From assembly GCA_021161745.1 (NCBI GenBank), contig JAGHAA010000024.1, positions 1 to 38,490 on the forward strand: a stretch of DNA of 38,490 nt, written 5' to 3'. The DNA is from Candidatus Aenigmatarchaeota archaeon. GTDB lineage: Archaea; Aenigmatarchaeota; Aenigmatarchaeia; CG10238-14; JAGHAA01. The position numbers and the translations under genes are program-made. Within the stretch, counting starts at the first letter, position 1; every line of letters begins with the position of its first letter. The notes under the pieces were generated by a model that worked only from the letters and a program-made list of their open reading frames with translations, was not told the origin of the DNA and made no database searches. This document shows positions 1-35,182 of this stretch, piece by piece.

Positions 1-111
1 AACTTCATGACCAGCTCTTTGTTGAGCAGCAGCTAATTCTGTTACAACTCTTGATATACCACCGACGGTGATTGAATGCAAAGATTCCCAAGAAAAATGA
101 GCAATTTTCAT
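1..111 (-). CDS. glycogen/starch-synthase-like glycosyltransferase, first 37 codons only (gene runs off the window edge)
   Basis: Reverse complement of 1..111 reads MKIAHFSWESLHSITVGGISRVVTELAAAQQRAGHEV. This is a typical N-terminus of GT4/GT5 glycogen-synthase-type enzymes (..E..P...VGG(I/L)...v..La.al...GHEV). It is absent from the ORF track because it is truncated. It lies next to two GH57 genes. Confidence 0.55.
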   Translation of the reverse strand, partial: MKIAHFSWESLHSITVGGISRVVTELAAAQQRAGHEV

Positions 112-176
112 AAATCAAATCACCTGATTATCTTTCTATTTTTTGTATATAAAATTTATTCCTGATAGAAATTGTG

Positions 177-1415
177 TTAATCATTATTTTTTAACAAATT
201 TTCTACCATTTCTATCGTTTTTTCTGCTTGTTCGAACCAGAATGGAGAATTCCAATATGTATAACAACTCGTTTCTGCTATTAGCAGGTACTTTAAAATC
301 TTATTCCTTTTAGATTTTGACACATTTTGTTCAACGTTATGGAACATAATACTGAGTCTTTTTATCTTTTTGTTTATTTGTTGTCTCCTACCACCTTCTA
401 ACCATAATTGATGTCCACCTACCCATGATCCACCTACATCTTTTATCTTTATACAATCCATTTTTTTATCTGGGGAATCCTCTAAAAATTCTGAAAGAGT
501 TTTGGAGGATACGTTTTTGTAATTACTCTTAAAAAATGGTTCAAACGTTTCAGGGAAGAATTGATTCATCATAACATTTCCGTTTTCTCCATCAGATGCT
601 GGAACTACTATTAACGGTCTTTCATCTTTAACTATTCGAAGAGCTTCTTTACATTTAGATAGAACACATTTAGCGTCACAACCTGCCTGTTGGTCTATAA
701 AGTAGTAAGGAACTTTTATGAATGCAGTTATTTCTTCTTTCCCTACAACAAGCTTGTGAGGCTTTGTACACATATCGATTTGTTTTTCAAAACTTAAAGA
801 CTTGAATCCTTCGATAGCTTCCGGTGGTAGGAAAACCCATTCATATCCATTCTCTCTTAGAATTCTGATTAAATCTTTTAACCCATTTCTTTCACCCGGA
901 ATTCCCATTTCTGGGAACCAAAAACCTTTGACACGTTTTAAGCTTTTTTGTCCGAACAACTTTTTGAAAACTTTTTTCCATTCTATGATTTGGAGTTCCC
1001 AATCTTCTTTAGGTGTTGTAGGAAAGTAGGAATGAGAGTATGCTGTTCCAGCGAATTCCAAATTGTTGGGGTATTTCTTCAAAACTTTTTTGTAAAGTGA
1101 AATTATATCGCCGATAGTCTCGTTTTCGACTTTCAAAGTTTTTAGTAGCTTTCTCATTTTGTGTAGAGATTCTAAAAGTATTCCAGAAAAATCGACCATA
1201 ACTTTGGGGTCGTACCCGTCTTTCGAGAGTTGATACACATACTTTGCAGGATTCTTGTAAGCTCTTACTATGAGCTTTCCATCCCAATTTTCTTTTTGAT
1301 CGCTCGATGTGAGCATTTTTTCAAGATTGCTGATAAGGACTTCTCTTCCGTTTCTTTCCTGCCAAATTAAAGGTTGATGCATGTGAAGCCAAGGAACGTA
1401 GAAACATTTTTTCAT
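177..1415 (-). CDS. glycoside hydrolase family 57-like alpha-glucan-active enzyme
   Basis: 412-aa ORF. The N-terminal WLHMHQPL matches the GH57 region-I HQP motif. FWFPEMG and SDGENG resemble the nucleophile and acid/base regions. It sits in a glycogen gene context. Confidence 0.6.
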   Translation of the reverse strand: MKKCFYVPWLHMHQPLIWQERNGREVLISNLEKMLTSSDQKENWDGKLIVRAYKNPAKYVYQLSKDGYDPKVMVDFSGILLESLHKMRKLLKTLKVENETIGDIISLYKKVLKKYPNNLEFAGTAYSHSYFPTTPKEDWELQIIEWKKVFKKLFGQKSLKRVKGFWFPEMGIPGERNGLKDLIRILRENGYEWVFLPPEAIEGFKSLSFEKQIDMCTKPHKLVVGKEEITAFIKVPYYFIDQQAGCDAKCVLSKCKEALRIVKDERPLIVVPASDGENGNVMMNQFFPETFEPFFKSNYKNVSSKTLSEFLEDSPDKKMDCIKIKDVGGSWVGGHQLWLEGGRRQQINKKIKRLSIMFHNVEQNVSKSKRNKILKYLLIAETSCYTYWNSPFWFEQAEKTIEMVENLLKNND

Positions 1416-1549
1416 AATCTTTATTTTTCCATCATAAAGAAAAGAATATTATGGATCGTTTTGGTTTTGAAATTTTGCAAACGAAACGAAAGATAAGCTT
1501 AAAATTTCAACAAAAACGTATAGTTTTCTGGGAGAGAAAACTCTCAAAA

Positions 1550-2194
1550 ATGGTAAAAGATAAAGTGGTTCTTGACCCTTATGCATTTAAATCTGCAAAA
1601 AAACGAGATAAGACTATCTACCTAGTTTATAAGCTAGGTGAATCATTGGAATACTTTAAACGTCTGTCTGAAAAAACGGGTATGCATTTCGACATAACAC
1701 TTTTAAGGTCGGGAACTTTATCTGGTCGAGCTTCGGGCGAGCTAATATGCACTTATGGTCATAAGCACGAGGAGAATAGAGGAGAGCTCTACTTTGTTTT
1801 GAAGAATGAATGTATGATAGAACTTTACGATGAGACTTCTAGAGAAACTTTGGTTTTATCACTGCCTGAGAGATCATACATATTCATACATCCTAAATTC
1901 TTTCACCGCCTAATAGCAGGAAAAGAAGATTGTGTAGTGCTAGGCATAGTTCCAAAGGATGCTGGCCATGATTATTCTGTTGTTAAAAACAAAGGATTTC
2001 CATTCCACGTGTTTTACGACAGTAAAAGAGGCATGCTGAAATACGTCCATAATCCAAACTTTTCTGGCGTATCTCTTTTAATCGACAAAGTTTTGAGCAA
2101 AAGTAGTTTGACAGCTATCTTAAAAAGAATAAACACCTTTAGAAAATTACTATTCAACCCTAAAACGGGTAGGAGTATATACTACCTTGGTTAA
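1550..2194 (+). CDS. pgiA: cupin-type glucose-6-phosphate isomerase (cPGI)
   Basis: TYGHKHEENRGELY fits the cPGI signature TxGHxHx6-8E(V/L)Y. HPKFFHR...PKDAGHDYSVVKNKGF matches the second cPGI signature of the Pyrococcus/Thermococcus enzymes. The three-His-plus-Glu metal ligands are all present. The ORF track starts at ATG 1451, but the homologous part begins near ATG 1550, so the start is uncertain. Confidence 0.8.
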   Translation: MVKDKVVLDPYAFKSAKKRDKTIYLVYKLGESLEYFKRLSEKTGMHFDITLLRSGTLSGRASGELICTYGHKHEENRGELYFVLKNECMIELYDETSRETLVLSLPERSYIFIHPKFFHRLIAGKEDCVVLGIVPKDAGHDYSVVKNKGFPFHVFYDSKRGMLKYVHNPNFSGVSLLIDKVLSKSSLTAILKRINTFRKLLFNPKTGRSIYYLG

Positions 2195-2236
2195 ATTTAT
2201 TTATTCGCTGATGGAAATGAAGAATAAGGTGTTTAA

Positions 2237-3700
2237 ATGCCTGCGATTACCCTTAATTTTGAAGTTCATCAACCATTAAGATTGAAGCACTATCCTACTG
2301 GTTCAGAAGGTTTAAAGGACGAAGAACTTTTTGATCACTACATAAACAACGGGTTAAACAAATTCGTTTTCGATAGAGCTGCTAATAAATGCTATTGGCC
2401 TGCTACTAAGATTCTTGCAGAATTAGTGGATACGTTTAAAGGTCAAAAAAAAGAATTTAAATTTTCTTTTAATTTTTCTGGTGTTTGGATAGAACAATGC
2501 GAGAAGTGGCATCCAGACCTTCTTGATTTGATAAAACAACTGGCTCGATCCAAAAGAGTTGAAATACTCGGTAGCACTTACTATCATTCTCTCGCAAGTC
2601 TTTTTGATGACCATTCTGAGTTTATAGAGCAGATAGAGATGCAAACCCAACTGATGAAAGATTTGCTCGGTGTTAAACCAAAGATCTTTATGAATACCGA
2701 GATGATATACAACAACTTAATAGCAAAAACTGTAGAGGATTTGGGCTTTAAAGCAATATTTACTGAAGGAACAGAGAAAATCCTTGGTTGGAGATCTCCG
2801 AATTATGTCTATGTAAGAGGTTTAGCTCAGGAAAAAGATGCTCCACTGAAGAATCGAATAAGAGTTTTATTAAGAAATTATCGATTAAGCGATGACATAG
2901 GATATAGATTCTCTGCTAAATGGTGGGACCAATGGCCGCTTACTGCTGAAAAGTATGCGATATGGTTGTCTGCAACGGAAGGACAGGTAATAAACATCTT
3001 TATGGATTATGAAACGTTCGGAGAACATCATCCAGAAGAGAGTGGAATATTCTGGTTTTTGAAAGCTTTGCCGTGGAAAATATTCGAATGGGAGAATTTG
3101 GAGTTTCTAACTCCTTCTGAGGTCGTTAAAAAGTTTGAACCGGTAGGAGAGTTTGACGTCCCCGGCTGGTCTGCAATCTCTTGGGCCGATATGGAAAGAG
3201 ATACTTCAGCTTGGTTGGGAAATAGCATGCAACAGATGGCATTTGAAGAATTGAAAAAGCTCGAAAAGCCTGTAAAGGAGAGCGGTAATAAGTACCTCAT
3301 AAGATTATGGAGGTTGCTTTTGCAGAGTGATCATCTCTACTACATGTGTACAAAATGGTGGAATGATGGCGACGTTCATAAATACTTCTCACCATTCTCT
3401 ACTCCACACGACGGCTTCATAAGCTTGATAACCGCATTGTCTGACATAAAGCTTAGAGTGTATGCGGACAGAATAAAAAGAGAAGTTACGAAACCAAGAA
3501 AGGAAAAGGTTAGAAAAGTTTTGAAAAAACCAAAAATCCAAAAAAGAGGTGTAGAAAGGAAGATTAAACCTGAAACACAGGTCTCGACGAAAGCACAGGT
3601 CGTAAAAGAACTGAGTGACATAGAGTACTTACTAAAAGAGGAAGTTACTTATCCATCCATCGTAATCCATGATGTTGAAATAGAAAAATTAAATAAGTGA
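2237..3700 (+). CDS. GH57 alpha-amylase-like glycoside hydrolase with a Lys-rich C-terminal tail
   Basis: 487 aa. LNFEVHQPLR is GH57 region I. FMDYETFGEHH fits the DxExFGxH acid/base region. An AAGGTG Shine-Dalgarno site precedes the ATG. The last ~90 aa are K/R-rich and lie outside the catalytic fold. Confidence 0.7.
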   Translation: MPAITLNFEVHQPLRLKHYPTGSEGLKDEELFDHYINNGLNKFVFDRAANKCYWPATKILAELVDTFKGQKKEFKFSFNFSGVWIEQCEKWHPDLLDLIKQLARSKRVEILGSTYYHSLASLFDDHSEFIEQIEMQTQLMKDLLGVKPKIFMNTEMIYNNLIAKTVEDLGFKAIFTEGTEKILGWRSPNYVYVRGLAQEKDAPLKNRIRVLLRNYRLSDDIGYRFSAKWWDQWPLTAEKYAIWLSATEGQVINIFMDYETFGEHHPEESGIFWFLKALPWKIFEWENLEFLTPSEVVKKFEPVGEFDVPGWSAISWADMERDTSAWLGNSMQQMAFEELKKLEKPVKESGNKYLIRLWRLLLQSDHLYYMCTKWWNDGDVHKYFSPFSTPHDGFISLITALSDIKLRVYADRIKREVTKPRKEKVRKVLKKPKIQKRGVERKIKPETQVSTKAQVVKELSDIEYLLKEEVTYPSIVIHDVEIEKLNK

Positions 3701-3704
3701 AAGA

Positions 3705-6700
3705 TTAAGATGAGCAAATCTTCTTTTCCGTTTCATAAACGAGTTTTCTTGTTTTAAGAACAACGTCTGGGTTGACTGAAATGCTGTCTATTCCTTCTTT
3801 TATGAGGAATTCTGTTATTTCTGGGTACGTGCTCGGTGCCTGTCCGCAGATGGAAACTGTTACGCCTGCATCGTGTGCTTTTTCTATCAACATCTTTATT
3901 GCCTTCAAAACGGCCGGATTTCTTTCGTCAAAGTAACCCATCTTTCCGAGCAAACCAGAATCTCTGTCTATTCCTAATACGAGCTGTGTTAAATCGTTAC
4001 TACCTATACTAAACCCGTCGCAAAGTTTTGCAAATTCCTCTGCCAAGAAAACTATGCTTGGCACTTCTGCCATCAACCATACTTTAAAGTTTTTCTCTCC
4101 ACGCCTGAGTCCTTCTTCTTCCATTATCTTCAGAACTTTTTCAACTTCCCAAGTGGTTCTTACAAAAGGAAGCATCACCCATACGTTATCCAGACCCATC
4201 TCATCTCTGACTTTCTTTATCGCCTTACATTCAAGTCTAAACGCCTTCTCGAACTCTGGAGAGATGTAACGGCTTACTCCTCTCCAACCTAGCATTGGGT
4301 TATCCTCTTCTGGCTCATACTTTTTTCCACCTTTGAGAAGTCTGTACTCGTTCGTTTTGAAGTCGCTAAACCTTACAACAACAAAACGTGGGTATATTGC
4401 TTTGGCGACCATTGCTATGCCTTCAGCTAGTTTATCAACATACTTTTGCTCTTGGCCTATTTCTAACAAATAATTCGGATGCTCTCCGATGTAAGTCGCT
4501 ATTATGAATTCTATTCTCATCAAACCTATGCCTTCGAAAGGCAAATCTTTGTAGTCCTCTATCTTCTCTGGCACACCTAAGTTCATAAGAACCTTTGTTT
4601 TAGTTTTGAGTTTCTTTATTGCTTCTATTTCTTCAGGGCTTAATTCTTCCTTCTTTTCTCTTTCAATGATGTCCTCTATTTTGCCGGGATAGACAACCCC
4701 GTTCGTAGCATCAACAGTAACGACTTGACCATCTTTTAAAACTTTCGTTGCGTTCTCAGTTCCTACGATGCATGGTATACCGAGTTCTCTACTAACTATT
4801 GCAGCGTGACATGTTATGCCACCTTCATCAGTTATGATAGCTGAAGCTATTTTCATGTAAGGAACCCAATCAGGATTGGTCATAGTAGTAACGAGTACGT
4901 CTCCCTTTTCTAGTTTTTCTGCTTCTTGTAAAGTTTTTGCGACGATAACTCTACCTACAGCAGCTCCCGGAGATGCTGTCAAACCTTTTACTAAAGGTTT
5001 TATCTTCAACTTTTCTTCCTCTCTCCTTTTTTCGTAGAACACGGTTACAGGACGTGTTTGTAGTAAGAAAACTTTTCCATACTCGCTTGCCCATTCGAAA
5101 TCCTGAGGGAAGCCATAATGTTCTTCTAACTTCTTTGCTAATCCCCAGAGTTGATGGAGCTCATCTTCCGTTAAACATTCGATTTTTTGTAATTCCTTCG
5201 GGACTGATATTTCAACGAGTCCGCCCTTTTCTAGATCTGTGTACCGCATCGTAAGCTTATCTCCTACATGCTTCTCTACTACTTTACCCGTTTCCTTATC
5301 CAGTACATAAGTATCTGGATTTACAGACCCACTGACAACGCTTTCTCCCTGCCCCCATGAACCTTCTATCAGAATCTTGGTTTTATCGCCCGTAGAAGGG
5401 TGTATGGTAAACCCAACACCGGCTTTGTATTTACCAGCCAAGTAATCTTCTTTGCTTAAGGCACCAAGCTGCTTTTGCACAGGTACTGCTATTAAAACTT
5501 TTTCATGGGAAAAACCTTTCTGGTGTCTGTAGAAGGTTGCTCTTGCAGTAAAAAGGCTAGCCCAACATTTTTTAACACCCTCGACCACTTGTTCTGCTCC
5601 TTTCACGTTTAGTAAAGTTAGCTGTTGACCAGCGAAGCTTGCTGAATTATGCGTTATGATGCCTCCAGTTCCCGCAGCGAAGTTTTCGACGCCTGGAACG
5701 AAGAAATCATAAACATAACCACTGTATTCTCTTTCCTTAATACCTTTTACCTCATCCCAGTAAATTTCCTCAGGAACTATTTCGCTTAAGGAAATTCCGT
5801 ACTTTTCACTTAGAACTTTTTGCAATTTTTTAATACCAAAAACATCGTTAACGATTCCCTTATTCCAAGGAATCATTCCTTCCAAAAACCTTCCAAGTTC
5901 ATCATAACCTACGTACTTCAGTTCCTCTTTAACTATTACCTCGTTGCTGTAGAATGTTTTATGACAGTTCCTACAATAAAATCTTTCTCTACCCTTATAG
6001 TGGCTAGATTTTTCAACCTTGTTTTTGCAGTATGGGCATAAGTAGACTTTTACCTTTCTTTTTTGAAGCCTCTCTTCCAAGATTTTCCTAACGTGAGACG
6101 TTGGAAAAGGTAGTGTGTATATGAAATCATGATGTCTCTCACGACTTCCAAATTCTTTTGCTATTCTTTTAGCCTTCTCGAATTTTCTTCTATTTTCAAA
6201 CCCTACAATCCTTAAAAACTTCTGAGTGTCTCTAGTAAGTATCTTTATAGTTAAACTCTTTCCCTTTCTCCTTATGTAAAAGTCTATTCCGAGCACTTCT
6301 AAAAGCTTAGTTAGACCAGAGATCAAGCGTTTAGATGTGTTGTAAAAGGATACGTTGGTACTTTCAACGGTACCGTCCCCATCAAAACAACCTTTGACAA
6401 ATTCTGCTATGAACTTCTTTTCTGCATTAAAGACTATGTCTGGAACTAGTTTAACGTACCTACCCTTACCTTTTTTGCCGCTATCCTTTACTGCGATATT
6501 TTCAAGCAATTCCACTAACTTTTTGGAGTATAGCCTTAACTCATCTTTTTTAGTAGTGCTAACCCTTATTCCAAGTTTTTTAGCAAACGTTTTAATCCTT
6601 TCGACAACGGATTGATCGAAAACTGATAGGATGATGGACCTTGAGTGCTTGTCTACCGTTCCGTCGGCGGCAAAGATACCAAAAAAGTAGAAGAAATCTT

Positions 6701-7496
6701 CATCCAAGTTTAAGTTATCCATGTTTACTGGAAGTAACTCTTTAAGCTTCTTACGATTAAGTGGTTTTAATTCTAACCTTCTGGTTACGGGAACTCTAAC
6801 TTTTTTACCTATTGCATCCTTTGTTTTTTGAAGAACTTTTGGCTTAAACGATTTTTCATCTAAAATTATTAACGAATGGTTCGGAGAAACAACAACTCTT
6901 CTTCCACTTTTAGTCATTATCTCATAAAGTTTATCGTTGCAAGGATGTCTATAAACTTCTTTAACTCTCTTCCAAACAACTCTTCCATTTTCCATCGAAG
7001 GGACTTCAAGTATACAGTCTTCACTATTAAACTTTTCCCAGAGTTCGTCCATCGTAAGATGTCTAACAACGCCGTTAATCCTAACTAATACAAATTCGTC
7101 TCCAGCTATGCTAGGTAAATCCTCAGCTGTGGCTGAACTACGGATTGCGACCCATTCCTCTTCTTTTCCAAATTCTTGTGAGAGTTGTTTGTAGGCTTTA
7201 ACTATTTCTTCCTTGATTTCTTGTGGCATCTCAGTTTCCTCTATGAGCTTTCTTATGCTTGCAGTTTTTTCCTCTAAGTCCTTTGGATTGCTGTAATCTA
7301 TAGTTTCAAGTATGCTAAATATCTTACTCCTTATACGAGTAACGTCCAAAAAGTGCTTGTAAGCTTGAGCAGTGACTATGAAAGCGTTTGGCACAGGTAA
7401 ACCAGCGTTATACATCTCACCCAAATTTGCTCCTTTACCTCCAACTTCTGGTATGTCATCTTTTATTATGTCTTTGAGAAATTTTACGAACTTCAA
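3705..7496 (-). CDS. ppsA: phosphoenolpyruvate synthase (pyruvate, water dikinase) interrupted by a 489-aa intein
   Basis: Motifs present are VGGKGANLGEM, SSATAEDLP / SASFAGQQ, the TTMTNPDW..GGITCHAAIVSRELGIP phosphohistidine domain, and the C-terminal PEP-utilising TIM barrel (GSNDLTQ). The extein totals about 786 aa counted from the ORF-track start. The ORF track starts at TTG 7532. TTG 7496 is preceded by TAAGGAGGGGGAGT and gives the usual N-terminus M-KFVKFLKDIIKDDIPEVGGKGANLGEM. Confidence 0.9.
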   Translation of the reverse strand: MKFVKFLKDIIKDDIPEVGGKGANLGEMYNAGLPVPNAFIVTAQAYKHFLDVTRIRSKIFSILETIDYSNPKDLEEKTASIRKLIEETEMPQEIKEEIVKAYKQLSQEFGKEEEWVAIRSSATAEDLPSIAGDEFVLVRINGVVRHLTMDELWEKFNSEDCILEVPSMENGRVVWKRVKEVYRHPCNDKLYEIMTKSGRRVVVSPNHSLIILDEKSFKPKVLQKTKDAIGKKVRVPVTRRLELKPLNRKKLKELLPVNMDNLNLDEDFFYFFGIFAADGTVDKHSRSIILSVFDQSVVERIKTFAKKLGIRVSTTKKDELRLYSKKLVELLENIAVKDSGKKGKGRYVKLVPDIVFNAEKKFIAEFVKGCFDGDGTVESTNVSFYNTSKRLISGLTKLLEVLGIDFYIRRKGKSLTIKILTRDTQKFLRIVGFENRRKFEKAKRIAKEFGSRERHHDFIYTLPFPTSHVRKILEERLQKRKVKVYLCPYCKNKVEKSSHYKGRERFYCRNCHKTFYSNEVIVKEELKYVGYDELGRFLEGMIPWNKGIVNDVFGIKKLQKVLSEKYGISLSEIVPEEIYWDEVKGIKEREYSGYVYDFFVPGVENFAAGTGGIITHNSASFAGQQLTLLNVKGAEQVVEGVKKCWASLFTARATFYRHQKGFSHEKVLIAVPVQKQLGALSKEDYLAGKYKAGVGFTIHPSTGDKTKILIEGSWGQGESVVSGSVNPDTYVLDKETGKVVEKHVGDKLTMRYTDLEKGGLVEISVPKELQKIECLTEDELHQLWGLAKKLEEHYGFPQDFEWASEYGKVFLLQTRPVTVFYEKRREEEKLKIKPLVKGLTASPGAAVGRVIVAKTLQEAEKLEKGDVLVTTMTNPDWVPYMKIASAIITDEGGITCHAAIVSRELGIPCIVGTENATKVLKDGQVVTVDATNGVVYPGKIEDIIEREKKEELSPEEIEAIKKLKTKTKVLMNLGVPEKIEDYKDLPFEGIGLMRIEFIIATYIGEHPNYLLEIGQEQKYVDKLAEGIAMVAKAIYPRFVVVRFSDFKTNEYRLLKGGKKYEPEEDNPMLGWRGVSRYISPEFEKAFRLECKAIKKVRDEMGLDNVWVMLPFVRTTWEVEKVLKIMEEEGLRRGEKNFKVWLMAEVPSIVFLAEEFAKLCDGFSIGSNDLTQLVLGIDRDSGLLGKMGYFDERNPAVLKAIKMLIEKAHDAGVTVSICGQAPSTYPEITEFLIKEGIDSISVNPDVVLKTRKLVYETEKKICSS
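5646..7112 (-). mobile_element. class-1 intein with LAGLIDADG homing-endonuclease domain and an extra CxxC...CxxC zinc ribbon
   Basis: The insert sits between AEDLP and SASFAGQQ of PpsA. Ser1 starts SIAGDEFVLV (block A). Block B is SPNH. The LAGLIDADG motifs are FFGIFAADGTV and FVKGCFDGDGTV. Blocks F/G are YVYDFFVPGVENFAAGTGGIITHN, followed by the +1 Ser. The zinc ribbon is CPYCKNKVEKSSHYKGRERFYCRNC. Confidence 0.85.
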
Positions 7497-7544
7497 ACTC
7501 CCCCTCCTTATATATTTCTTACCATCAATCAATAATTTCTATTA

Positions 7545-8321
7545 GTGAATATTATGGATCCTCTTAAAAAAAAGCGTAAGCGTCTGAAGAAATTTTTTTC
7601 TAAAGACGGGAAAACAGTTTTGTTGGTTTTTGACCATGCTGTCGAGCATGGCCCACATAACTATGAAGGTGTAGACTTAACGCCTCTAAGGATTGCTGAA
7701 ATAGCTGTTTCTGGCGGTGCAAAAGGTGTGATTCTACATGCCGGTTCTGCCAAACTGGTAAAGCAATTCTATCCAGAATTGCCGGTGATAGTTAAGATTA
7801 CAGGAAGAACGAGCTTAACCCCTACTATGGTGCAAGAAATAGTCACGACTGTGGAAGAGGCTGAAAGAGTTGGAGCAGATGGCATAGCTATGACTGTTTA
7901 TGTCGGTGCAACGTATGAGCATAAGATGTTAAGAAACTTGGCAGAAGTAAAGAAGGAGTGTTATGAAAGAGGCCTTCCTTTGTTCACTTTCATGTACCCT
8001 CGTGTAAAAGACAAAAAAACAACAGAAGAAAAGTACGTGAGGTACGCTGCAAGGTTGGGTGCAGAATTAGGAGTAGATGTCGTCAAGACTTACTATACAG
8101 GCGATAAAAAGAGTTTTTCCAAAGTTGTGAAAGATTGTTTCGTTCCACTGGTTTGTGCTGGTGGATTAAAGACAAAAACTGTTGAGGATTTCCTTAAAAA
8201 AGTTGAAACTGTAATGGAAGCTGGAGCAAGTGGTTTGGCTGTGGGAAGGAACGTTTGGATGAGGGAAAATCCCATAGAAGTTCTAAAACAAGTCGTAAAA
8301 AGAGTTATAAAAGGTGAATGA
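7545..8321 (+). CDS. fba: class I (archaeal DhnA-type) fructose-1,6-bisphosphate aldolase
   Basis: 258 aa. The opening GKTVLLVFDHAVEHGP and the TIM-barrel pattern (VVKTYYTGD, AGGLK, GLAVGRNVW) are typical of archaeal class IA FBA. GTG 7545 or ATG 7554 could be the start. Confidence 0.75.
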   Translation: MNIMDPLKKKRKRLKKFFSKDGKTVLLVFDHAVEHGPHNYEGVDLTPLRIAEIAVSGGAKGVILHAGSAKLVKQFYPELPVIVKITGRTSLTPTMVQEIVTTVEEAERVGADGIAMTVYVGATYEHKMLRNLAEVKKECYERGLPLFTFMYPRVKDKKTTEEKYVRYAARLGAELGVDVVKTYYTGDKKSFSKVVKDCFVPLVCAGGLKTKTVEDFLKKVETVMEAGASGLAVGRNVWMRENPIEVLKQVVKRVIKGE

Positions 8322-9326
8322 ATGAAAAGGTTTGACGTAGTAGGTGTTGGTTCCTTAGTCGTAGACTTCTTTACGGATTCACCTTATCTCATCATCGAAA
8401 TGTCCTACTGGAAGAAAGAAACTTTTATAGCTCTTCCAACAGGCAAAACGTTGTCAAGAGTTGTAATGAGAGGTGGCGGGTCTTCTGGCAATACAATAGC
8501 TTATCTTTCAAAGCTCGGATTAAAATGCGGATATTTTACTAAATTAGGTTATGACACTCTTTCCCAGTTTTTAATAGACGATTTAAGTTCATTTGGTATC
8601 GATACGAGTGGTATACTAAGGGAAAGAGGCTTAGAAGCTGGAAAGTCCATAATAGTCTCATCAAAAGGTTTAAAAGACCATGCTCTTGTCGTCGACCATG
8701 GGGCTTCTGATTTTCTTACAAAGAAAGATGTCGAGAAGAAACTTGAATATGTCATGTCTGCTGAATGGATAGATTTGACGAGTTTTACGAGCAAGGCTGC
8801 AATAGAAGCTATGATGTACTTGGTAAAAAAGATAAAAGATTCCGTTAAAATATTCTTCGCTCCAAGCAAAACGATGATAAGTGTGTTTCCGAAAGAGACT
8901 TTGAAAATTCTAAAAATATCTAACGCGGTTTCGTTGAACGAAGAGGAAGCGATGATTTTAACAAAAAAGAATGATTTAATTTCTGTGCTCAAGATGTTCA
9001 AAAAAATCGGTTTACAGGCTTTCATAACTAGAGGTAAAGATGGTATTGTTGCTTTGTTCGATGGGAAAGCGTATAAAATAGGCTCTTACAAAGTCAGAGA
9101 CGTAAAGAACACGACTGGGGCTGGGGATGTTGCGGCCGCATGGTTTCTGTATGGACTGAAAACTGGCATGGACATTAAAAAAATACTGAATTACGCCTCC
9201 GTCGCGGCTGCATTTCATGTCAGGAGTAATGTTGTCGGAGGGCATGAAGGATTGCCAACGAGAAGAGAAATAGAAAGATACCTTAAAAAAGTAAGAGATT
9301 TACCAGTAAGGGAAATAAAGCTTTAG
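8322..9326 (+). CDS. PfkB-family sugar kinase, candidate ATP-dependent 6-phosphofructokinase
   Basis: GGSSGNT, NEEEA (NxxE) and TGAGDVAAAWF (the TGAGD catalytic motif) are present. The ATG immediately follows the fba stop codon, indicating translational coupling. Substrate is inferred from context only. Confidence 0.7.
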   Translation: MKRFDVVGVGSLVVDFFTDSPYLIIEMSYWKKETFIALPTGKTLSRVVMRGGGSSGNTIAYLSKLGLKCGYFTKLGYDTLSQFLIDDLSSFGIDTSGILRERGLEAGKSIIVSSKGLKDHALVVDHGASDFLTKKDVEKKLEYVMSAEWIDLTSFTSKAAIEAMMYLVKKIKDSVKIFFAPSKTMISVFPKETLKILKISNAVSLNEEEAMILTKKNDLISVLKMFKKIGLQAFITRGKDGIVALFDGKAYKIGSYKVRDVKNTTGAGDVAAAWFLYGLKTGMDIKKILNYASVAAAFHVRSNVVGGHEGLPTRREIERYLKKVRDLPVREIKL

Positions 9327-10093
9327 CCTATGTGCTTCCACTCTCCTGAAAAAACAAAACCGAATAATTTTCCTTCTTTTGCTAACTTAGGCAGGATAGT
9401 CCTTTCCAAAGAACCTTTGTTAGGTATACGTGAAAGGACATCTGGTTCCATCAAGTAGACGCCAGCATTGACATGGTAAGTTTTTTCGTTTTTTGCTGGA
9501 TATTTGAATTCAACGACTTTGTTTCCTATGAGTTTCACAGCATCCTTTGAATGGTTTAGTGAAGTCACTGAAATAGCCATCGTTACCAACGCCTTGTTGG
9601 ATTGGTGGAATTCTACCATTTTCGAAAGGTCGAAATCAAAATATTCGTCACCAAAGACTACAAAGAACGGTGTGTTTAAGTATCTTTCAGATTTTTTGAT
9701 TACACCAGCCGTTCCTAAGCCTTCATCTTTTATGTAAGTCACACGTAGTCCGTATTCTGAACCGTCTCCAACAACTTCGAAAATTTTATCTGTGATAGGA
9801 CCTGCTGCTATTATAACATTCTTCACACCAGCTTCTTTTAGTTTCTGGATTGTGTTTAATATGAGAATTTTTCCGTTCACCTTTACTAACGGCTTATAAG
9901 TATTCCCATACTTTAACTCTTTTATATCACCGCCAGCTAAGATTATGGCATGGTTTACTTCTCTTTGCCCTAAAGCTTTCCTCAACAAATACTCTATAGC
10001 TTGAGATCTGTTTCTTATGTTTATACCATCTATCAAATTGTCCACTTTGCTTAAAAGGGAAGTGTCTAAAGTTATTGAAATTTTTTCTTTCAT
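9323..10093 (-). CDS. ribbon-helix-helix (CopG-like) domain fused to a sugar-1-phosphate nucleotidyltransferase-like domain
   Basis: The N-terminus MKEKISITLDTSLLSKVDNLI..NRSQAIEYLLRKAL has an RHH pattern. It is followed by AIILAGGD...YKPLVKVNGK...GTAG...VFGDEY, an NTP-transferase fold. The ORF track starts at TTG 10117, but ATG 10093 is more plausible. Confidence 0.65.
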   Translation of the reverse strand: MKEKISITLDTSLLSKVDNLIDGINIRNRSQAIEYLLRKALGQREVNHAIILAGGDIKELKYGNTYKPLVKVNGKILILNTIQKLKEAGVKNVIIAAGPITDKIFEVVGDGSEYGLRVTYIKDEGLGTAGVIKKSERYLNTPFFVVFGDEYFDFDLSKMVEFHQSNKALVTMAISVTSLNHSKDAVKLIGNKVVEFKYPAKNEKTYHVNAGVYLMEPDVLSRIPNKGSLERTILPKLAKEGKLFGFVFSGEWKHIG

Positions 10094-10149
10094 AATAAAA
10101 TTTTTAGTTTTTATCAATATTTATTCGACGGTTAATAAAAATTACATAG

Positions 10150-10998
10150 ATGCTTGGGATAGATTTGGGGGCAAACAAAGTTCTTGGCGTGAAAGTTAAA
10201 AAAGGGAAAGTGACAAGGCGTGTCAAAATCACGTTGAAGAGTAAAACGAAAGATGAAATAGTTTCTGCAATAGATTCTCTCATAGACCAATTGGGAAAGG
10301 GTGAAAAGGCTGTTGGAATAGACATACCAGGTATACATCAAAAAGGAAAGATTTTAAAAACACCAAACTTACCTTCTCTTAACGGATTTGACTTGAAAAA
10401 AGAGATAGAAAAGAAATGGAACAAAGCTGTGGTAGTGGAGAACGACGCAAATTGTTTTGCGTACGGAGAAGCTATAAGGAGAAAGAAAAAGTTTTTGGTC
10501 GGGATAACTATAGGAAGTGGTTTAGGAGGAGGAATCGTAATAGACGGAAAGATATACCATGGAAAAAGAGATGTTGGAGAATTTGGGCATATGACTATTT
10601 TTGTCAACGGAAGAAAATGCACCTGTGGAAACAGAGGTTGTTGGGAAATGTACGTTTCTGAAAAAGGTTTTAAAATAGAGAGTAAACGGATTTTTGGAAG
10701 ATCTCTTCCTCCGTTAGAAGTGTTTAACCTTGCTAATCAAGGAAACAAAAAGGCTCTTTTAATTTTCGAAAAAATCGGAAGCTATTTGGGTGTAGGGCTT
10801 GCTAACATAGCAAACATACTGAATCCTGAGATAATAGTCATCGGTGGTGGGATTTCTAAATCCAAAAAGTTTTTACTACCTCCTGCTTTGAAAGAAATGA
10901 GAAAAAGATTGATGGTTTCTGAGCCGAAAATTGTGGTTGGAAGGTATGATTCTGCAGCCTACGGAGCAGCATTGTTGACAAAATTTTTTAAAGTATAA
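10150..10998 (+). CDS. glk: ROK-family glucokinase
   Basis: The N-terminal GIDLGA is the ATPase phosphate-1 motif. ENDANCFAYGE is present. The ROK zinc motif GHMTIFVNGRKCTCGNRGCWE is present. Confidence 0.8.
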   Translation: MLGIDLGANKVLGVKVKKGKVTRRVKITLKSKTKDEIVSAIDSLIDQLGKGEKAVGIDIPGIHQKGKILKTPNLPSLNGFDLKKEIEKKWNKAVVVENDANCFAYGEAIRRKKKFLVGITIGSGLGGGIVIDGKIYHGKRDVGEFGHMTIFVNGRKCTCGNRGCWEMYVSEKGFKIESKRIFGRSLPPLEVFNLANQGNKKALLIFEKIGSYLGVGLANIANILNPEIIVIGGGISKSKKFLLPPALKEMRKRLMVSEPKIVVGRYDSAAYGAALLTKFFKV

Positions 10999-11025
10999 GT
11001 CGTAGCAATTACAAAAATCTATAAC

Positions 11026-11715
11026 ATGAAGCAGGTTTTATCGTTACCCATTATAATGATAAACTTTAAAACGTATCCTCAATCGATTGGTAAAAAAGGT
11101 TTAAGGTTGGCTAAGATAGTTGAAAAAATTTCTAAAAAGTATGGAGTAACGATAGCTGTAGTACCTCAATTCTATGATGTAAGGCTTATCGCAACCTCTG
11201 TTGACATACCAGTTTTTGCTCAACATGTAGATCCTATAACTCCTGGTGCTCATACAGGTCATTCGCTTGCAGAAACGATAAAAGATAGCGGCGCCATAGG
11301 AAGTCTAATCAACCATTCTGAAAAAAGGATGAAGGTCGATGAGATAAAACAATCGGTGAAGATCATGAGAAAAAACGGTCTTTTGTCTGTCGTTTGTGTT
11401 CCAAACATCAAGTTTGCGAAATTAGTTGTAAAATACAAACCAAACTTTATCGCTTATGAGCCTCCAGAGTTGATAGGGAGTGGTAGAGCGGTTTCTAAAG
11501 TAAAACCAGAAGTCGTTGAGAAATTTTCTAAACTAATAAAAACTCATGGTAAAGGCATAATACCTCTGTGTGGTGCTGGGATAACGACGGCTGATGATGT
11601 GAGATTGGCTGTAGAGCTGGGAACGAGTGGTGTTCTTTTGGCTTCGGCTTTCGTTAAAGCAAAAGACCCGAAAAAAGTTTTAGAAAAGATGGCAAAAGCG
11701 TTGGTTAATGCTTAA
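11026..11715 (+). CDS. tpiA: triosephosphate isomerase (short archaeal type)
   Basis: 229 aa. INFKTY, NHSE(K)R, YEPPELIGSG, CGAGI and GVLLASAFVKAKDP are near-collinear with the Thermococcales TIM as recalled. Confidence 0.9.
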   Translation: MKQVLSLPIIMINFKTYPQSIGKKGLRLAKIVEKISKKYGVTIAVVPQFYDVRLIATSVDIPVFAQHVDPITPGAHTGHSLAETIKDSGAIGSLINHSEKRMKVDEIKQSVKIMRKNGLLSVVCVPNIKFAKLVVKYKPNFIAYEPPELIGSGRAVSKVKPEVVEKFSKLIKTHGKGIIPLCGAGITTADDVRLAVELGTSGVLLASAFVKAKDPKKVLEKMAKALVNA

Positions 11716-12922
11716 GTAAAGCTTCTATTCCTGGCATCGGTTTCCCAGAGAGATAAGTTATTAGGGCTCCACCTCCGATGCTTACATGGGAGAACTTTGA
11801 TTTATCTACGTTGAATTTCTGTAGGACTGAAAGTGTGTGTCCACCCCCGGCAAGAGAGAAACAAGGTGAGTTCGCAACCCCTTCGAATATAATCCTCGTT
11901 CCTATTTCAAACCCTTCTTTCTCAAAGACACCTGCAGGTCCTTTTAGGATGGCATTCTTAGACCCGTTTATTTCACCAACGTATTTCACAGCAGTCTTTA
12001 TTCCAATGTCTTGTATCAAATACTTCGTTGGAAGTTGATCTATCGTTAACTCAACTCTCTTTCCGTTTTTATCTACGGCTACATCTATCGGTGCTTCTAT
12101 TCTGTCTGAATGTTTCTTCCAAAGCTTTTTAACGTCATCTAAGTACTCGAGGTATCCTGCCTTTTTCAAGTATGAAATAGTAGTTCTTCCCAAATCATAA
12201 CCTTGAGCCACCAGGAAGAGTTCGCCCAACACCCCGCATGTAAGTATTCTATCTATGTACCCATTTTCTTCAAGCATATGTTTCATGATTTTTATAGGAT
12301 CTTCTGGTTTAGCCCCACCAAGTATGAAGACATCCCTTTTTGATATCTTCAACCTCCACATAAGCTTAGAGAGTGCCCTTACTTCTTTCTCCATAGTTCT
12401 TCCAGCGAAGGAAGGTAGTACTGCTGTAAAACCGACTATGCTTGCGTGGCTTCTGTGCGCAGCTGAAAAAGCATCGTTGACGAAAACATCTGCAAGTGGT
12501 GCGAGCTCTTTAACTATCGTGCTTTTCGCATGCTCTTCAGGTGGTTTGTTAAGAGTTTCATCTTCTAAGAATCTTACGTTATCGAGTAAGAGAATTTCTC
12601 CATCTCGAAGGTTTTTTATGGCATTCTTAGCCTTTTTCCCTACGATGTCGTTAACGAACTTTACCTTTTTACCCACTAATTTTTCTAAAACTTTTGCATG
12701 CTTTCTGAGCGATATGAAATCTTTTTTTCCTTTCCTTCCTTGATGTGAAAGAACTACTAGTTTTGCACCCTTTTTGCTGAGTTCTTTTATCGTTTCTGCA
12801 GAAGCATAGAATCTTTCTGTTACTACCAACCTTCCATGCCCGTTGATCGGCGAGTTTATGTCAACACGTAGAATCGTTGCTTTTCCTTTAAAGTTATAAT
12901 CATCTATAGTTGGCAATTTCAT
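11705..12922 (-). CDS. pgk: 3-phosphoglycerate kinase
   Basis: 405 aa. Motifs are RVDINSPI, LSHQGR, NVRF, VNDAFSAAHRSHAS and GGGHT...SIGGGA. Confidence 0.9.
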   Translation of the reverse strand: MKLPTIDDYNFKGKATILRVDINSPINGHGRLVVTERFYASAETIKELSKKGAKLVVLSHQGRKGKKDFISLRKHAKVLEKLVGKKVKFVNDIVGKKAKNAIKNLRDGEILLLDNVRFLEDETLNKPPEEHAKSTIVKELAPLADVFVNDAFSAAHRSHASIVGFTAVLPSFAGRTMEKEVRALSKLMWRLKISKRDVFILGGAKPEDPIKIMKHMLEENGYIDRILTCGVLGELFLVAQGYDLGRTTISYLKKAGYLEYLDDVKKLWKKHSDRIEAPIDVAVDKNGKRVELTIDQLPTKYLIQDIGIKTAVKYVGEINGSKNAILKGPAGVFEKEGFEIGTRIIFEGVANSPCFSLAGGGHTLSVLQKFNVDKSKFSHVSIGGGALITYLSGKPMPGIEALLKH

Positions 12923-13007
12923 TAAACCACCTTGTAGAAGTAGTAAAGCTGGATATGCGATTTTTCTGGCATCTATTTTAGATTAAAATTTTCTCCTTAT
13001 AAACTTT

Positions 13008-13027
13008 TCCTACTTTATCCTACTTTG
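13008..13027. repeat. tandem 10-bp direct repeat TCCTACTTT(A/G) x2 upstream of pgk
   Basis: Read directly. It lies 86-105 nt upstream of the pgk ATG, in the 147-nt pgk/gap spacer. Confidence 0.5.
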
Positions 13028-13069
13028 TGATAAAGAGTCGTAAAATTTCTATTAAAAAGAAAAAGAAAG

Positions 13070-14104
13070 CTAGTAGATGCCCATCGTTTTGTTCGTCTTT
13101 TTTATAGATTCCCAGTTGTCTTTTGCTAAGCCGAACATGGCTCTTATTGCATCGATGTTCTCTGGTATGACTATGGCTTCTGAATGCACAGCTTGTGCCC
13201 AGAAGATGTCATCTTCCATAACGTTGATGCTTTCCTCCCACACAGCGACTTCATACATGTCATACCTCGGCCTTAAAATGTCTCTGAAGTGTTCTATTAT
13301 CTCTGCTGTAGATGTATAGCCATGGCTTGCCTTGAACGTCAAAATGCGTGGTGTTTTAGCGAAAGCTTCTAAGATTTCTTCCTTTTTAGGCGGGTTTTTA
13401 CTTTCCACATGAATTACGTGTGTATGTGCTAGTGTTGTAGGTACAACTACTGCTAACGTTTTGATGTTCAAATCTTTGAGAACGGTTTTGACGTCTGGTC
13501 CATGGTGTGATGGGACGTCCATGTTAGGCACGATTGCATTAATAGGACCCTTTCTCGGATTTACAGGGTCAGCGGCTCTCCTTACCAAAGCTACAACAGC
13601 TTCCTCTATCTCACATAACTGGCTTAAAGTCCACAACGTTCTTATGAGAGCAGTTGTGTTGCATGATGGAACTCTTACAAATTGCTTGTCTTTGGCTTCA
13701 TCAAAGTTTACGAAAGAGTTGAAAGTCATGTCTGCCACATCAGCTTTTTCTCCTCCTTGAAAGATTGCTTTAACACCATACTTTTTGTACAACTCTTTGT
13801 TTTTTGCTCCAATTCCTTTGGGTGTTGCATCTACCACGACATCAACTTTTCCATCTTGTAAAAGTTCTTCCAACGTTCCCTTAACGTACATACCAGCGTT
13901 TCTCATTTCCTCTATTCTGTTTGGGTCTGAGCAATAGAGGTCGGTTTTGTACAGAGGACCATCTGGTTCAAGAACAGTCCTTAGCGTGGAAGTTGCTGTG
14001 ACATCAGAAATCCCAACCAAATTCATATCATCTTGTAATCTGACTGCATGAGCAATCCTCTTTCCTATGACACCTATTCCGTTTACAACAACTCTAACAG
14101 CCAT
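13070..14104 (-). CDS. gap: glyceraldehyde-3-phosphate dehydrogenase, archaeal phosphorylating type
   Basis: 344 aa. NGIGVIGKR is the Rossmann motif and VPSCNTT is the active-site Cys motif. A GAGGTGGT Shine-Dalgarno site lies upstream. Confidence 0.9.
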   Translation of the reverse strand: MAVRVVVNGIGVIGKRIAHAVRLQDDMNLVGISDVTATSTLRTVLEPDGPLYKTDLYCSDPNRIEEMRNAGMYVKGTLEELLQDGKVDVVVDATPKGIGAKNKELYKKYGVKAIFQGGEKADVADMTFNSFVNFDEAKDKQFVRVPSCNTTALIRTLWTLSQLCEIEEAVVALVRRAADPVNPRKGPINAIVPNMDVPSHHGPDVKTVLKDLNIKTLAVVVPTTLAHTHVIHVESKNPPKKEEILEAFAKTPRILTFKASHGYTSTAEIIEHFRDILRPRYDMYEVAVWEESINVMEDDIFWAQAVHSEAIVIPENIDAIRAMFGLAKDNWESIKKTNKTMGIY

Positions 14105-15077: not shown

Positions 15078-15924
15078 AACGAAACCTTCGATGCTAAGGA
15101 AAGTTTACAAAAAGCGAAACGAATGGGCACACAAGTACAATTTTGGTCATCTGCTTGTCATAGGCGGAAGTAAACAATATTCTGGATCACCATCTTTTAA
15201 CGCAATGGCCGCCTATAGGTCTGGAGTGGATTTGGTTACGGTCGTGGCTCCGGAAAGAGCTGCTAATATAATCTCTTCTTTTAAGCCAGATATGATAGCG
15301 TATCCGTTGGAAGGAGATTTCTTAAGACCATCACATCTAAGAGAGATTCTTAAGATTGCTGAAAAAACGACGGCTTTCGTTATAGGTGGTGGGTTGGGAA
15401 GAGAGAAAGAAACAAAAAAAGCTGTTGTAAAGTGGCTGAGCTCGGTAACAAAGCCAGGTGTTATAGATGCTGATGCTATTCATGCAGTATCAGAAAACCT
15501 TGATGTGATAAAAAACAAGAATTTTATCTTGACGCCACACGCTCATGAATTCTACATCCTTAGTGGGATAAGAGTAAAGGATGAAATAGCACATAGGGTA
15601 AAAGTGGTTAAAGAATTTGCGAAGAAGTTAGGGGTAACTGTATTGCTGAAAGGTCATGTGGATGTAATTTCTGATGGGAAAAAAGTTATTCTGAATAAAA
15701 CGGGAACTCCGTACATGACGAAAGGAGGTCTGGGAGACGTTCTGGCTGGTATTTGTGGGGCTTTGTTGACAAGGGATTGCGATCCGTTGATAGCAGCATC
15801 AGTAGGAGCTTTCATCTCTGGAAAAGCTGGTGAGTTGGCATCAAAAATCTATGGGGAAGGTTTGATGGCAAGCGATGTCATAGATTTCATACCTAAAGTT
15901 ATAATAACGTACACAAAACGCTAA
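15070..15924 (+). CDS. ADP/ATP-dependent NAD(P)H-hydrate dehydratase (YjeF C-terminal family)
   Basis: AHKYNFGHLLVIGGSKQYSGSPSFNAMAAYRSGVDLV and KGGLGDVLAG are typical family motifs. It overlaps the preceding gene by 8 nt. Confidence 0.8.
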   Translation: MIETKPSMLRKVYKKRNEWAHKYNFGHLLVIGGSKQYSGSPSFNAMAAYRSGVDLVTVVAPERAANIISSFKPDMIAYPLEGDFLRPSHLREILKIAEKTTAFVIGGGLGREKETKKAVVKWLSSVTKPGVIDADAIHAVSENLDVIKNKNFILTPHAHEFYILSGIRVKDEIAHRVKVVKEFAKKLGVTVLLKGHVDVISDGKKVILNKTGTPYMTKGGLGDVLAGICGALLTRDCDPLIAASVGAFISGKAGELASKIYGEGLMASDVIDFIPKVIITYTKR

Positions 15925-35181: not shown

Positions 35182-35182
35182 G

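Follow-up and report, generated by a model that had tools for sequence, protein, structure and literature searches.

Genes of central sugar metabolism are grouped in several known systems. Thermoproteus tenax has fba-pfp and pgk-gap operons, Bacillus subtilis has a cggR-gapA-pgk-tpiA-pgm-eno operon, and bacterial glgBXCAP-type operons keep the genes for glycogen synthesis and breakdown together. Here we describe a carbohydrate gene cluster at the left end of contig JAGHAA010000024.1 of a Candidatus Aenigmatarchaeota archaeon (assembly GCA_021161745.1). The window is this entire contig (38,490 nt, C76), the longest of the 84 contigs of a DPANN metagenome-assembled genome (MAG) of 744,764 bp (completeness 88%, contamination 0, GC 0.383, roughly 850 genes). 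We consider it probable, and hold with good confidence, that the locus groups small operons serving both glycogen metabolism (synthesis and breakdown) and an Embden-Meyerhof (EMP) trunk usable in both directions, covering ∼23 kb with at least 17 genes and inherited vertically.

Like the T. tenax and B. subtilis operons, the cluster pairs an aldolase gene with a candidate phosphofructokinase (PFK) gene and GAPDH with PGK, and a candidate local regulator, a CggR_N-like winged helix-turn-helix (wHTH) protein (15949–16533), lies beside it. Unlike in T. tenax, the kinase is of the PfkB type and not a PPi-PFK, and unlike both sets of operons the cluster is far larger, includes glycogen genes, PGI, PpsA and a predicted glucokinase, and is divided into at least seven units on both strands. 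As in glgBXCAP operons, genes for glycogen synthesis and breakdown are adjacent. In contrast to these operons, no GlgC, GlgB (GH13 type) or GlgP is found in the locus, which combines GT3 and GT4/5 synthases, GH57 enzymes, an archaeal debranching enzyme and a GalT-like protein, and is joined to the glycolytic trunk.

The enzyme inventory itself is already known from DPANN archaea. Reconstructions of Ca. Nanohalobium constans (PMC7443923) and of Aenigmarchaeota (PMC8407114) share with the present genome glycogen synthase, debranching enzyme, glycoside hydrolases, PGI, TIM, GAPDH, PGK, phosphoglucomutase (PGM), enolase, phosphoenolpyruvate (PEP) synthase and acetate fermentation; neither paper mentions a gene cluster, synteny or an operon. 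Ca. Nanohalobium constans acts on external glucans with secreted glucoamylases (PMC7443923), unlike the present archaeon. In Aenigmarchaeota, pyruvate kinase was missing, with PEP synthase as the proposed substitute, and only a single MAG had PFK (Li et al., 2021; PMC8407114); here, in contrast, a PfkB gene adjoins the aldolase gene. In Thermococcales, PpsA is essential for glycolysis (Imanaka et al., 2006, as cited in PMC8407114). The locus shares with Thermococcales a cupin PGI (cPGI) with conserved metal ligands, hydrolases of family GH57 and the likely use of PpsA to convert PEP to pyruvate; Thermococcales, however, rely on ADP-dependent kinases and GAPOR, which were not found in the present genome, and their genes are dispersed and form a regulon. 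Aeropyrum pernix has an ATP-dependent ROK glucokinase and a PFK-B-type ATP-phosphofructokinase (Hansen and Schonheit, 2001; Hansen et al., 2002; both among the references of PMC12525153), and in that respect ROK and PfkB families would likewise supply both ATP-dependent EMP steps here. The PfkB protein of the window matches the related MJ0406 structure weakly (26.9 bits), and its PFK activity is putative.

With respect to the literature searched, two points appear new: the combined neighbourhood with its size and its conservation across the lineage, and the coupling of PfkB to aldolase as an answer to the missing PFK. Operons for glycolysis and for glycogen metabolism are in themselves familiar. 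The feature is real and ordinary in kind, and its main value lies in the enzyme assignments that it opens to testing. DPANN archaea are usually viewed as metabolically crippled symbionts, and glycolysis of Aenigmarchaeota has been called incomplete without PFK. The conserved neighbourhood offers a concrete candidate, the PfkB gene adjoining the aldolase gene; if this kinase is a PFK, glycogen could be stored and fermented independently and host dependence would have to be re-read. The locus also gives a pathway context for a divergent cPGI, two GH57 types and a GalT-like transferase, which aids annotation elsewhere. The joining of glycogen metabolism to the glycolytic trunk fits the proposal that glycolysis evolved as the return route from a glycogen store (PMC12525153).

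Genes of the cluster and of its surroundings in the window are as follows; L numbers in the text denote compared loci, C numbers contigs of this genome.

1–111, minus strand: GT4/GT5 GlgA-like alpha-glucosyltransferase, N-terminal 37 codons (78% identity to residues 1–37 of the L066 orthologue)
177–1415, minus strand: GH57a, divergent GH57 glycoside hydrolase (PF03065, 60.6 bits, cut-off 21.2)
1451–2194, plus strand: cupin PGI (PF06560, 49.2 bits, cut-off 20.7)
2237–3700, plus strand: GH57b, with motifs of the alpha-amylase type (PF03065, 276 bits)
3705–7532, minus strand: PpsA (PEP synthase), 1275 aa, interrupted by an intein (NF005057, 1020 bits, cut-off 598)
5646–7112, minus strand: intein with LAGLIDADG homing endonuclease inside PpsA (in agreement with the Pfam span, residues 159–629)
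7545–8321, plus strand: archaeal class IA fructose-1,6-bisphosphate (FBP) aldolase, DhnA/DeoC family (Pfam, NCBIfam and structure alignment)
8322–9326, plus strand: PfkB-family sugar kinase, candidate ATP-dependent 6-phosphofructokinase (PF00294, 125.8 bits)
9323–10117, minus strand: ribbon-helix-helix (RHH) domain fused to a sugar-nucleotidyltransferase-like domain, RHH-NTP (NikR-type RHH matches, residues 11–55)
10150–10998, plus strand: ROK-family sugar kinase, putative ATP-glucokinase (PF00480, 213.7 bits)
11026–11715, plus strand: archaeal triose-phosphate isomerase, TIM (NF003302, 294.8 bits, cut-off 132)
11705–12922, minus strand: phosphoglycerate kinase, PGK (PF00162, 370.7 bits)
13070–14104, minus strand: type II (archaeal, phosphorylating) GAPDH (NF003251, 458.8 bits, cut-off 185)
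14154–15077, plus strand: thioredoxin-reductase-like flavoprotein, transcribed divergently from GAPDH
15070–15924, plus strand: NAD(P)HX dehydratase NnrD, following the flavoprotein gene and divergent from GAPDH
15949–16533, plus strand: wHTH protein (PH0730-like_N/CggR_N and DUF4443), following nnrD
33853–36322, plus strand: ApgM (cofactor-independent phosphoglycerate mutase) and enolase, 20 kb from the main cluster

Genes were called from a listing of open reading frames (ORFs) together with Pfam and NCBIfam scans of the proteins of the window and of contig C10. Every sugar gene that a first-pass annotation had named in 1–14104 was present where it had been placed, as was the ApgM-enolase pair, whose genes overlap by 8 nt; PpsA, TIM and GAPDH all exceed curated cut-offs. 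The sugar-metabolism supercluster that this annotation had suspected in a reduced genome is real: the genome measures 0.745 Mb, and clustering is conserved in relatives. Twelve consecutive carbohydrate genes (17 with C10) among ∼850 make a chance arrangement implausible (P < 1e-15, a rough estimate). The 12 genes lie on the strands in the order −,−,+,+,−,+,+,−,+,+,−,−, which makes at least seven transcription units; the divergent intergenic regions within the cluster, four in all, measure 12–49 bp. A single operon was ruled out, since the genes alternate between strands.

The cluster continues beyond the left end of the window. Positions 28599–28627 of contig C10 are identical to positions 1–29 of the window, a 29-nt exact overlap, and C10:27552–28655 matches residues 19–388 of the L066 GlgA-like orthologue at 67%. 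The GlgA-like reading frame runs unbroken across the C10|C76 join (AQQRAGHEV|HVFTR); the best NCBIfam match of this gene is glgA_Coryne (141 bits, under its cut-off). Leftwards from the join, C10 carries genes for a GH13 alpha-amylase-family enzyme, a GT3 (eukaryote-type) glycogen synthase and PGM, then for a GalT-like protein and an archaeal-type glycogen debranching enzyme (GDE). When the join is accepted, ∼17 carbohydrate genes follow one another uninterrupted over ∼22.8 kb, with NnrD and the wHTH gene next. The final ∼68 nt of C10 (28628–28695) have no match in the window and introduce a stop codon in the GlgA frame, which looks like a contig-end assembly artefact.

TIM-centred neighbourhoods were compared in 20 genomes of the same order and in 20 genomes of other orders of the class; the present genome is the sole member of its family in the comparison set, and its nearest genomes are those of the same order. 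Blocks that recur within the order are GH57b-PfkB-FBA-TIM(-PGK), GlgA-GH57a, cPGI-GH57a and PpsA-PfkB-FBA-TIM (FBA, FBP aldolase), and one genome (L021) has PfkB-FBA-TIM…PGK-GAPDH-ApgM-enolase, with the ApgM-enolase pair directly after GAPDH. The L040 family, from another order of the class, shows PGK-PfkB-FBA-TIM-NnrD, and its ROK and GH57b genes are close by. When species-representative genomes were searched with an alignment of cPGI, 36 loci were recovered; ∼25 have Aenigmatarchaeota in their titles, and many are from hot springs. In 14 of the 36 loci, 9–14 different carbohydrate gene kinds lie within 20 kb, in the near-fixed order GT4-GT5-PGM-PfkB-GH15-GlgA-GH57a-cPGI-GDE-GH57b, continued by FBPase V-TIM-PGK-GAPDH or by DeoC-like aldolase-PfkB-PGK-GAPDH-TIM. 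The window retains the backbone GlgA-GH57a-cPGI-GH57b…TIM-PGK-GAPDH-NnrD; GH57a is always paired with a GlgA-like gene, and the GlgA-GH57a-cPGI order is conserved. There is no debranching gene between cPGI and GH57b in the window, that gene lying further left on C10, and PpsA-FBA-PfkB-(RHH-NTP)-ROK is inserted between GH57b and TIM. Clustering is conserved in relatives, so that the supercluster stands where a lack of such conservation had been named as grounds for abandoning it.

Searches of the whole genome for the remaining steps gave the following picture. ADP-dependent kinases (ADP-PFK/GK), GAPOR, ALDH/GAPN and PFK-A were not found in the genome, and GAPDH/PGK with ATP-type kinase families is the only visible route, as had been proposed. 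Pyruvate kinase was not found in the genome and is present in 1 of the 41 genomes of the order sample; PpsA, suggested earlier as a possible terminal or gluconeogenic step, is the only enzyme seen between PEP and pyruvate. Full-length glycogen phosphorylase was not found in the genome or in relatives; weak partial matches to it occur in ∼500-aa ORFs of relatives, and the GT5 synthase-like ORF of L066 matches likewise. Four steps had been reported as not seen in the window. Glycogen phosphorylase and pyruvate kinase are not found in the genome either; PGM, however, lies on the adjoining contig C10 and a class V FBP aldolase/phosphatase on contig C62, among housekeeping and not sugar genes. A second PGM/PMM gene stands beside a canonical nucleotidyltransferase gene on contig C66, and 2-oxoacid:ferredoxin oxidoreductase (POR) and ADP-forming acetyl-CoA synthetase (ACD) are encoded on other contigs.

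The data establish family-level identity of the genes, their contiguity, the conservation of the cluster and its congruent inheritance. From these genes we infer how the locus would work, with putative substrates for the PfkB, ROK and GH57 enzymes and a presumed direction of flux and mode of regulation. For storage, fructose 6-phosphate would be converted to glucose 6-phosphate by cPGI and to glucose 1-phosphate by the PGM of C10, the latter being activated to NDP-glucose either by the GalT-like transferase of the cluster or by canonical nucleotidyltransferases encoded outside it. The alpha-glucan would then be built by the GT3 glycogen synthase together with the GT4/5 GlgA-like enzyme. Because no glycogen phosphorylase was found, breakdown is predicted to be hydrolytic, by the debranching enzyme, GH57a, GH57b and the GH13 enzyme. 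Hydrolytic breakdown would account for a glucokinase-type ROK enzyme in the cluster, which would re-phosphorylate free glucose. Glycolytic flow would pass through cPGI, PfkB as an ATP-PFK (the weakest link), the class I aldolase, TIM, GAPDH, PGK, ApgM and enolase; PpsA would run towards pyruvate, and POR and ACD would then yield acetate and ATP. In the reverse direction, gluconeogenesis would use PpsA and the class V FBP aldolase/phosphatase of C62. NnrD would repair NAD(P)HX arising from GAPDH.

On contig C22 (3283–5624; L088, L092), a gene for an AMP-phosphorylase-like protein (518 bits, cut-off 535) adjoins a RuBisCO large-subunit gene. This pair is a predicted archaeal AMP/pentose-bisphosphate route, which would yield 3-phosphoglycerate for the lower trunk of the cluster.

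The PfkB start codon directly follows the aldolase stop codon. The kinase has the RGGGSSGN (GG) and NTTGAGD (GAGD) motifs, and with 84 PfkB queries no other PfkB-family gene was detected in the genome. PfkB is directly beside the aldolase gene in 14 of the 19 order-sample genomes with a close aldolase orthologue, and beside TIM in 3 more; the PfkB-aldolase pair persists where TIM sits alone (genus g5). The clade of the window-type PfkB is small: ∼13 clusters at 46–62% identity, followed by a drop to 35% or less. One of its members, at 55% identity, is also directly beside an aldolase gene (L026). In the PfkB tree, aenigmarchaeal sequences fall into four clades (window type, FBA-TIM type, DeoC-PGK type and PGM/GH15-associated type), three of which are found beside aldolase. 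Since adjacency to aldolase recurs with three different PfkB clades, we regard the window PfkB as the best PFK candidate of the genome, and the chance that it is a phosphofructokinase as somewhat better than even.

Attempts to assign PfkB by homology, through NCBIfam, structures in the PDB and named homologues, gave no assignment. The best named homologues of PfkB, as of cPGI, are from Candidatus Aenigmarchaeota/Aenigmatarchaeota MAGs. Against TIGR03828 pfkB (1-PFK) the protein scores 42 bits (cut-off 292), and no curated archaeal PFK-B model is among its 19 NCBIfam matches.

Several observations weigh against the proposed reading of the locus or of its kinase. All 19 NCBIfam matches of PfkB stay far under their cut-offs, the best being ribokinase (95 bits) and IolC (93 bits), and the closest solved structures are an uncharacterised kinase and KDG kinase. 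The window PfkB is not orthologous to the FBA-TIM PfkB of same-order relatives (25–31% identity, separate clade), and is read as a putative replacement in place of the relatives' kinase. A close homologue in L024 has no aldolase neighbour, and kinase and class I aldolase pairs also serve other ketose phosphates. For the locus as a whole, the genes are on both strands and hence are not one operon, and motif counts in the window and the genome gave no convincing shared operator in cluster promoters. In roughly half of the 20 genomes of other orders, no glycolytic gene lies within 10 kb of TIM, which means that not all of the class has the supercluster. Support for the C10|C76 join comes from the 29-nt overlap, frame continuity and synteny, and all gene absences are provisional in a genome that is 88% complete and in 84 contigs.

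The cluster could instead serve mainly gluconeogenesis and glycogen storage, with an upper glycolytic direction that is incomplete, as in published reconstructions, and with PfkB acting on another sugar or nucleoside, as a ribokinase, a nucleoside kinase, a ribose-1-phosphate (R1P) kinase feeding the RuBisCO pentose-bisphosphate route or another ketose-phosphate kinase. The best family scores of PfkB, for ribokinase and IolC, would fit such a role, and R1P-kinase models match weakly. RuBisCO also adjoins the AMP-phosphorylase-like gene in this genome; that enzyme, however, would yield ribose 1,5-bisphosphate directly, and an R1P kinase is not required. PfkB and DeoC-family aldolase pairs occur in tagatose, sulfoquinovose and inositol pathways, with which a sulfofructose kinase match of PfkB is consistent; here, by contrast, the pair is embedded among cPGI, TIM, PGK and GAPDH, and the aldolase is ∼40% identical to T. 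tenax FBP aldolase. The genome has the strictly gluconeogenic type of FBP aldolase/phosphatase, but the retention of a class I aldolase next to this class V enzyme is best explained by FBP cleavage, for which PFK is required. A ROK kinase together with hydrolytic glucan breakdown implies, in addition, that free glucose enters the pathway. We consider a mainly gluconeogenic cluster with a different PfkB substrate unlikely. A more far-reaching version of the glycolytic reading is possible, though it has less than an even chance: a complete ATP-dependent classical EMP pathway of Aenigmatarchaeota running from the cell's own glycogen, for which fast-evolving PfkB kinases would have been recruited at least three times beside a class I aldolase. 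In the present lineage the two kinase genes would be under a DPANN-wide RHH-NTP transcription factor, whose catalytically degenerate nucleotidyltransferase fold would sense sugar.

The first-pass annotation had also raised the possibility of a mobile locus, with Thermococcales as a donor. Thermococcales typically have a cupin PGI, GH57 enzymes and a PpsA that works in glycolysis, and a selfish intein lies inside the PpsA of the window. Moreover, the aenigmarchaeal type of cPGI occurs on two Bathyarchaeota-titled contigs, and beside glycolytic genes on Nanoarchaeia- and Woesearchaeota-titled contigs, which indicates that single genes or small blocks do move laterally to some extent. The locus itself, however, did not qualify as a mobile island, for which deviant composition, an integrase or transposase, or a flanking tRNA or repeats would be expected. 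Its GC content is native (0.34–0.40 vs. 0.383 for the genome), so that the predicted composition skew is absent; the window contains no tRNA, Rfam and tRNA scans of it gave no match, and no integrase or transposase domain was found in the genes scanned. Identity of all trunk genes to same-order orthologues is even (40–64%), and in trees of six genes (GH57a, cPGI, GH57b, PGK, TIM and GAPDH) three arrangement-defined groups were clades in 16 of 17 tests. The 36 homologous cPGI loci fall within one mostly aenigmarchaeal clade, and a recent Thermococcales donor of cPGI is excluded by this clade of its own and by ∼26% identity (48 bits) to the Pyrococcus and Thermococcus structures. The Bathyarchaeota copies nest in the aenigmarchaeal clade and stand alone. 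We conclude from congruent trees, native composition and the lack of detected mobility genes that the cluster is native, conserved in Aenigmatarchaeota and vertically inherited with local rearrangements; an island that is mobile or recently acquired, for example from Thermococcales, is very improbable. Lower still, and practically negligible, is the probability that the clustering is an assembly or binning artefact on a chimeric contig. The MAG is fragmented into 84 contigs and the end of C10 carries ∼68 nt that are unmatched in the window, but over 20 MAGs of different studies, each assembled independently, repeat the gene order, and composition is uniform along the contig.

The two Bathyarchaeota-titled contigs (L070 and L078; 169 and 175 kb) carry their cPGI gene inside the aenigmarchaeal clade with support of 99/93 and no other cluster gene alongside it, which is probably a single-gene export from Aenigmatarchaeota and not an import of the cluster.

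Sequence motifs support the individual assignments to different extents. In the alignment with the Pyrococcus furiosus and Thermococcus litoralis cPGI structures, TxGHxH, GExY, PxxxH and AGHDY are retained; the corresponding residues (TYGHKH..GELY, the H of HPKFFHR and DAGHDY) are invariant in 22 clade members, and we take their metal-ligand (His, His, Glu and His) and catalytic roles to be those of the P. furiosus enzyme. The second signature, PPxxxHxxxN, is incomplete (HPKFFHRLI), P-x3-H being kept and the first Pro and the Asn not, and this is common to the whole aenigmarchaeal cPGI clade, which is dominated by Aenigmatarchaeota and in which the protein has a long branch. The annotated gene, which begins at a downstream ATG, encodes 214 aa. 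The cupin protein is a predicted phosphoglucose isomerase of the cupin type and of the aenigmarchaeal clade, with putative glucose 6-phosphate/fructose 6-phosphate isomerase activity.

In GH57a, HQP, WxPE (E169) and SDGEN (D275) are invariant in 15 orthologues, and in GH57b E155 and D257-x-ETFGEH are invariant in 17 orthologues. GH57b E155 aligns with Glu123 of T. litoralis 4-alpha-glucanotransferase, which we take to be the nucleophile. GH57a gave no match to solved structures and no significant BLASTP match to GH57b; a profile comparison with hhalign gave a probability of 92% and aligned E169 with E155. The two proteins are predicted to be distant paralogues, both with an invariant Glu at the nucleophile position and with putative substrates. 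An exact look-up of GH57a in public assemblies gave no match.

In PpsA, the PPDK_N, mobile and PEP-binding domains are all present, and the intein is inside PPDK_N; its region (residues 159–629) matches the Pfam families Intein_splicing, LAGLIDADG_3 and Hom_end. The true start of PpsA is probably slightly downstream of the listed TTG. In a relative (L024:1873–6681), PpsA has 1602 aa and two intein matches, and in another relative a LAGLIDADG ORF (L066:15402–16349) adjoins the class V FBPase gene. Genes of central carbon metabolism appear susceptible to homing elements in this lineage.

The aldolase scores 175.5 bits against T. tenax FBP aldolase (FBPA; 1OJX) and 175–178 bits across T. tenax FBPA and MJ0400. 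The K of VVKTYYTGD and the Y of MYPR align with identical residues of T. tenax FBPA, presumably the Schiff-base Lys and the active-site Tyr. The protein stays under the cut-off of the NCBIfam equivalog NF040816 (216.7 bits, cut-off 430) and just passes that of the ADH-synthase subfamily model PRK07226 (244 vs. 241). DHQ synthase II (PF01959), the partner of ADH synthase, was not found in the 88%-complete genome, and for this reason we favour a role as FBP aldolase over that of an ADH synthase of the DKFP aromatic pathway.

The ROK protein has the N-terminal DxGxN motif and the zinc motif GH...CxCGxxGCxE, and the Pfam match begins at residue 2. It thus combines the domain and the zinc motif (GHMTIFVNGRKCTCGNRGCWE) with the lack of an N-terminal DNA-binding domain. 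Scores against ROK_glcA_fam (134 bits, cut-off 260) and GK_Pyrobac (99 bits, cut-off 500) are both below the cut-offs. We propose a putative ATP-glucokinase, with glucose as a candidate sugar substrate.

In the RHH-NTP protein the nucleotide loop is degenerate, with GGDIKELK in place of GGxGTRL. Members of this DPANN-wide family (roughly 60 database clusters covering the RHH domain too) come from Micrarchaeota, Diapherotrites and GW2011_AR3, among those named. In a 24-sequence alignment, conservation is far stronger in the RHH domain than in the nucleotide-binding loop, where other residues or a deletion take the place of the motif; GTAG and single Asp and Glu residues are retained. Among the loci of homologues compared (L089, L090, L091 and L039), close homologues adjoin a ROK gene (L089) or have HAD-like and PfkB genes in their vicinity (L090). 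It is reasonable to suggest a sugar-sensing transcription factor. The four very short divergent spacers, possibly together with the RHH-NTP protein, would allow coordinated control. A distant RHH-NTP homologue (L039:5871–6716) is found among surface-sugar genes. The wHTH protein (15949–16533) may be a second local regulator, its membership in the cluster being uncertain; a homologue (L090:2712–3323) lies 3 kb from the RHH-NTP gene.

Two candidate operators were rejected. TWCCATCA is present in three promoters of the cluster and has 10 occurrences in the window (2.8 expected), but it was dropped because it is common across the genome (0.18 per kb). The 10-mer TATTTATTCG occurs upstream of GH57b and in the spacer between the RHH-NTP and ROK genes, with 4 occurrences in the genome; since it lies at about −30 from start codons, TATTTATTCG is read as a TATA-box region and not as an operator.

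The nnrD gene recurs beside TIM, GAPDH or PGK in L008, L010, L026–L029, L040, L046 and L059. NnrD repairs NAD(P)HX, and NADHX is a by-product of GAPDH; the recurrence is in keeping with a repair gene that is linked to the enzyme generating the damaged metabolite. In seven relatives (G016, G013, G097, G121, G144, G069 and G052), the TIM match holds one in-frame TAG, TAA or TGA, which could reflect sequencing errors, gene boundaries or recoding.

On C10, the GalT-family gene (hexose-1-phosphate uridylyltransferase, DUF4921-like; C10:21885–22886, equal to L084:12886–13887, minus strand) lies between the debranching enzyme and PGM genes. Its product may serve in the supply or recycling of NDP-glucose, substituting for a GlgC-type enzyme. 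Directly upstream of the glycogen genes, C10:15670–19940 (L084:6670–10941) encodes a Cys/Met pyridoxal-phosphate enzyme, an MtnA-type methylthioribose-1-phosphate isomerase, a methylthioadenosine (MTA) phosphorylase and a TRZ/ATZ-type deaminase. These genes resemble a 5′-deoxyadenosine/MTA salvage set, whose products could feed triose phosphates.

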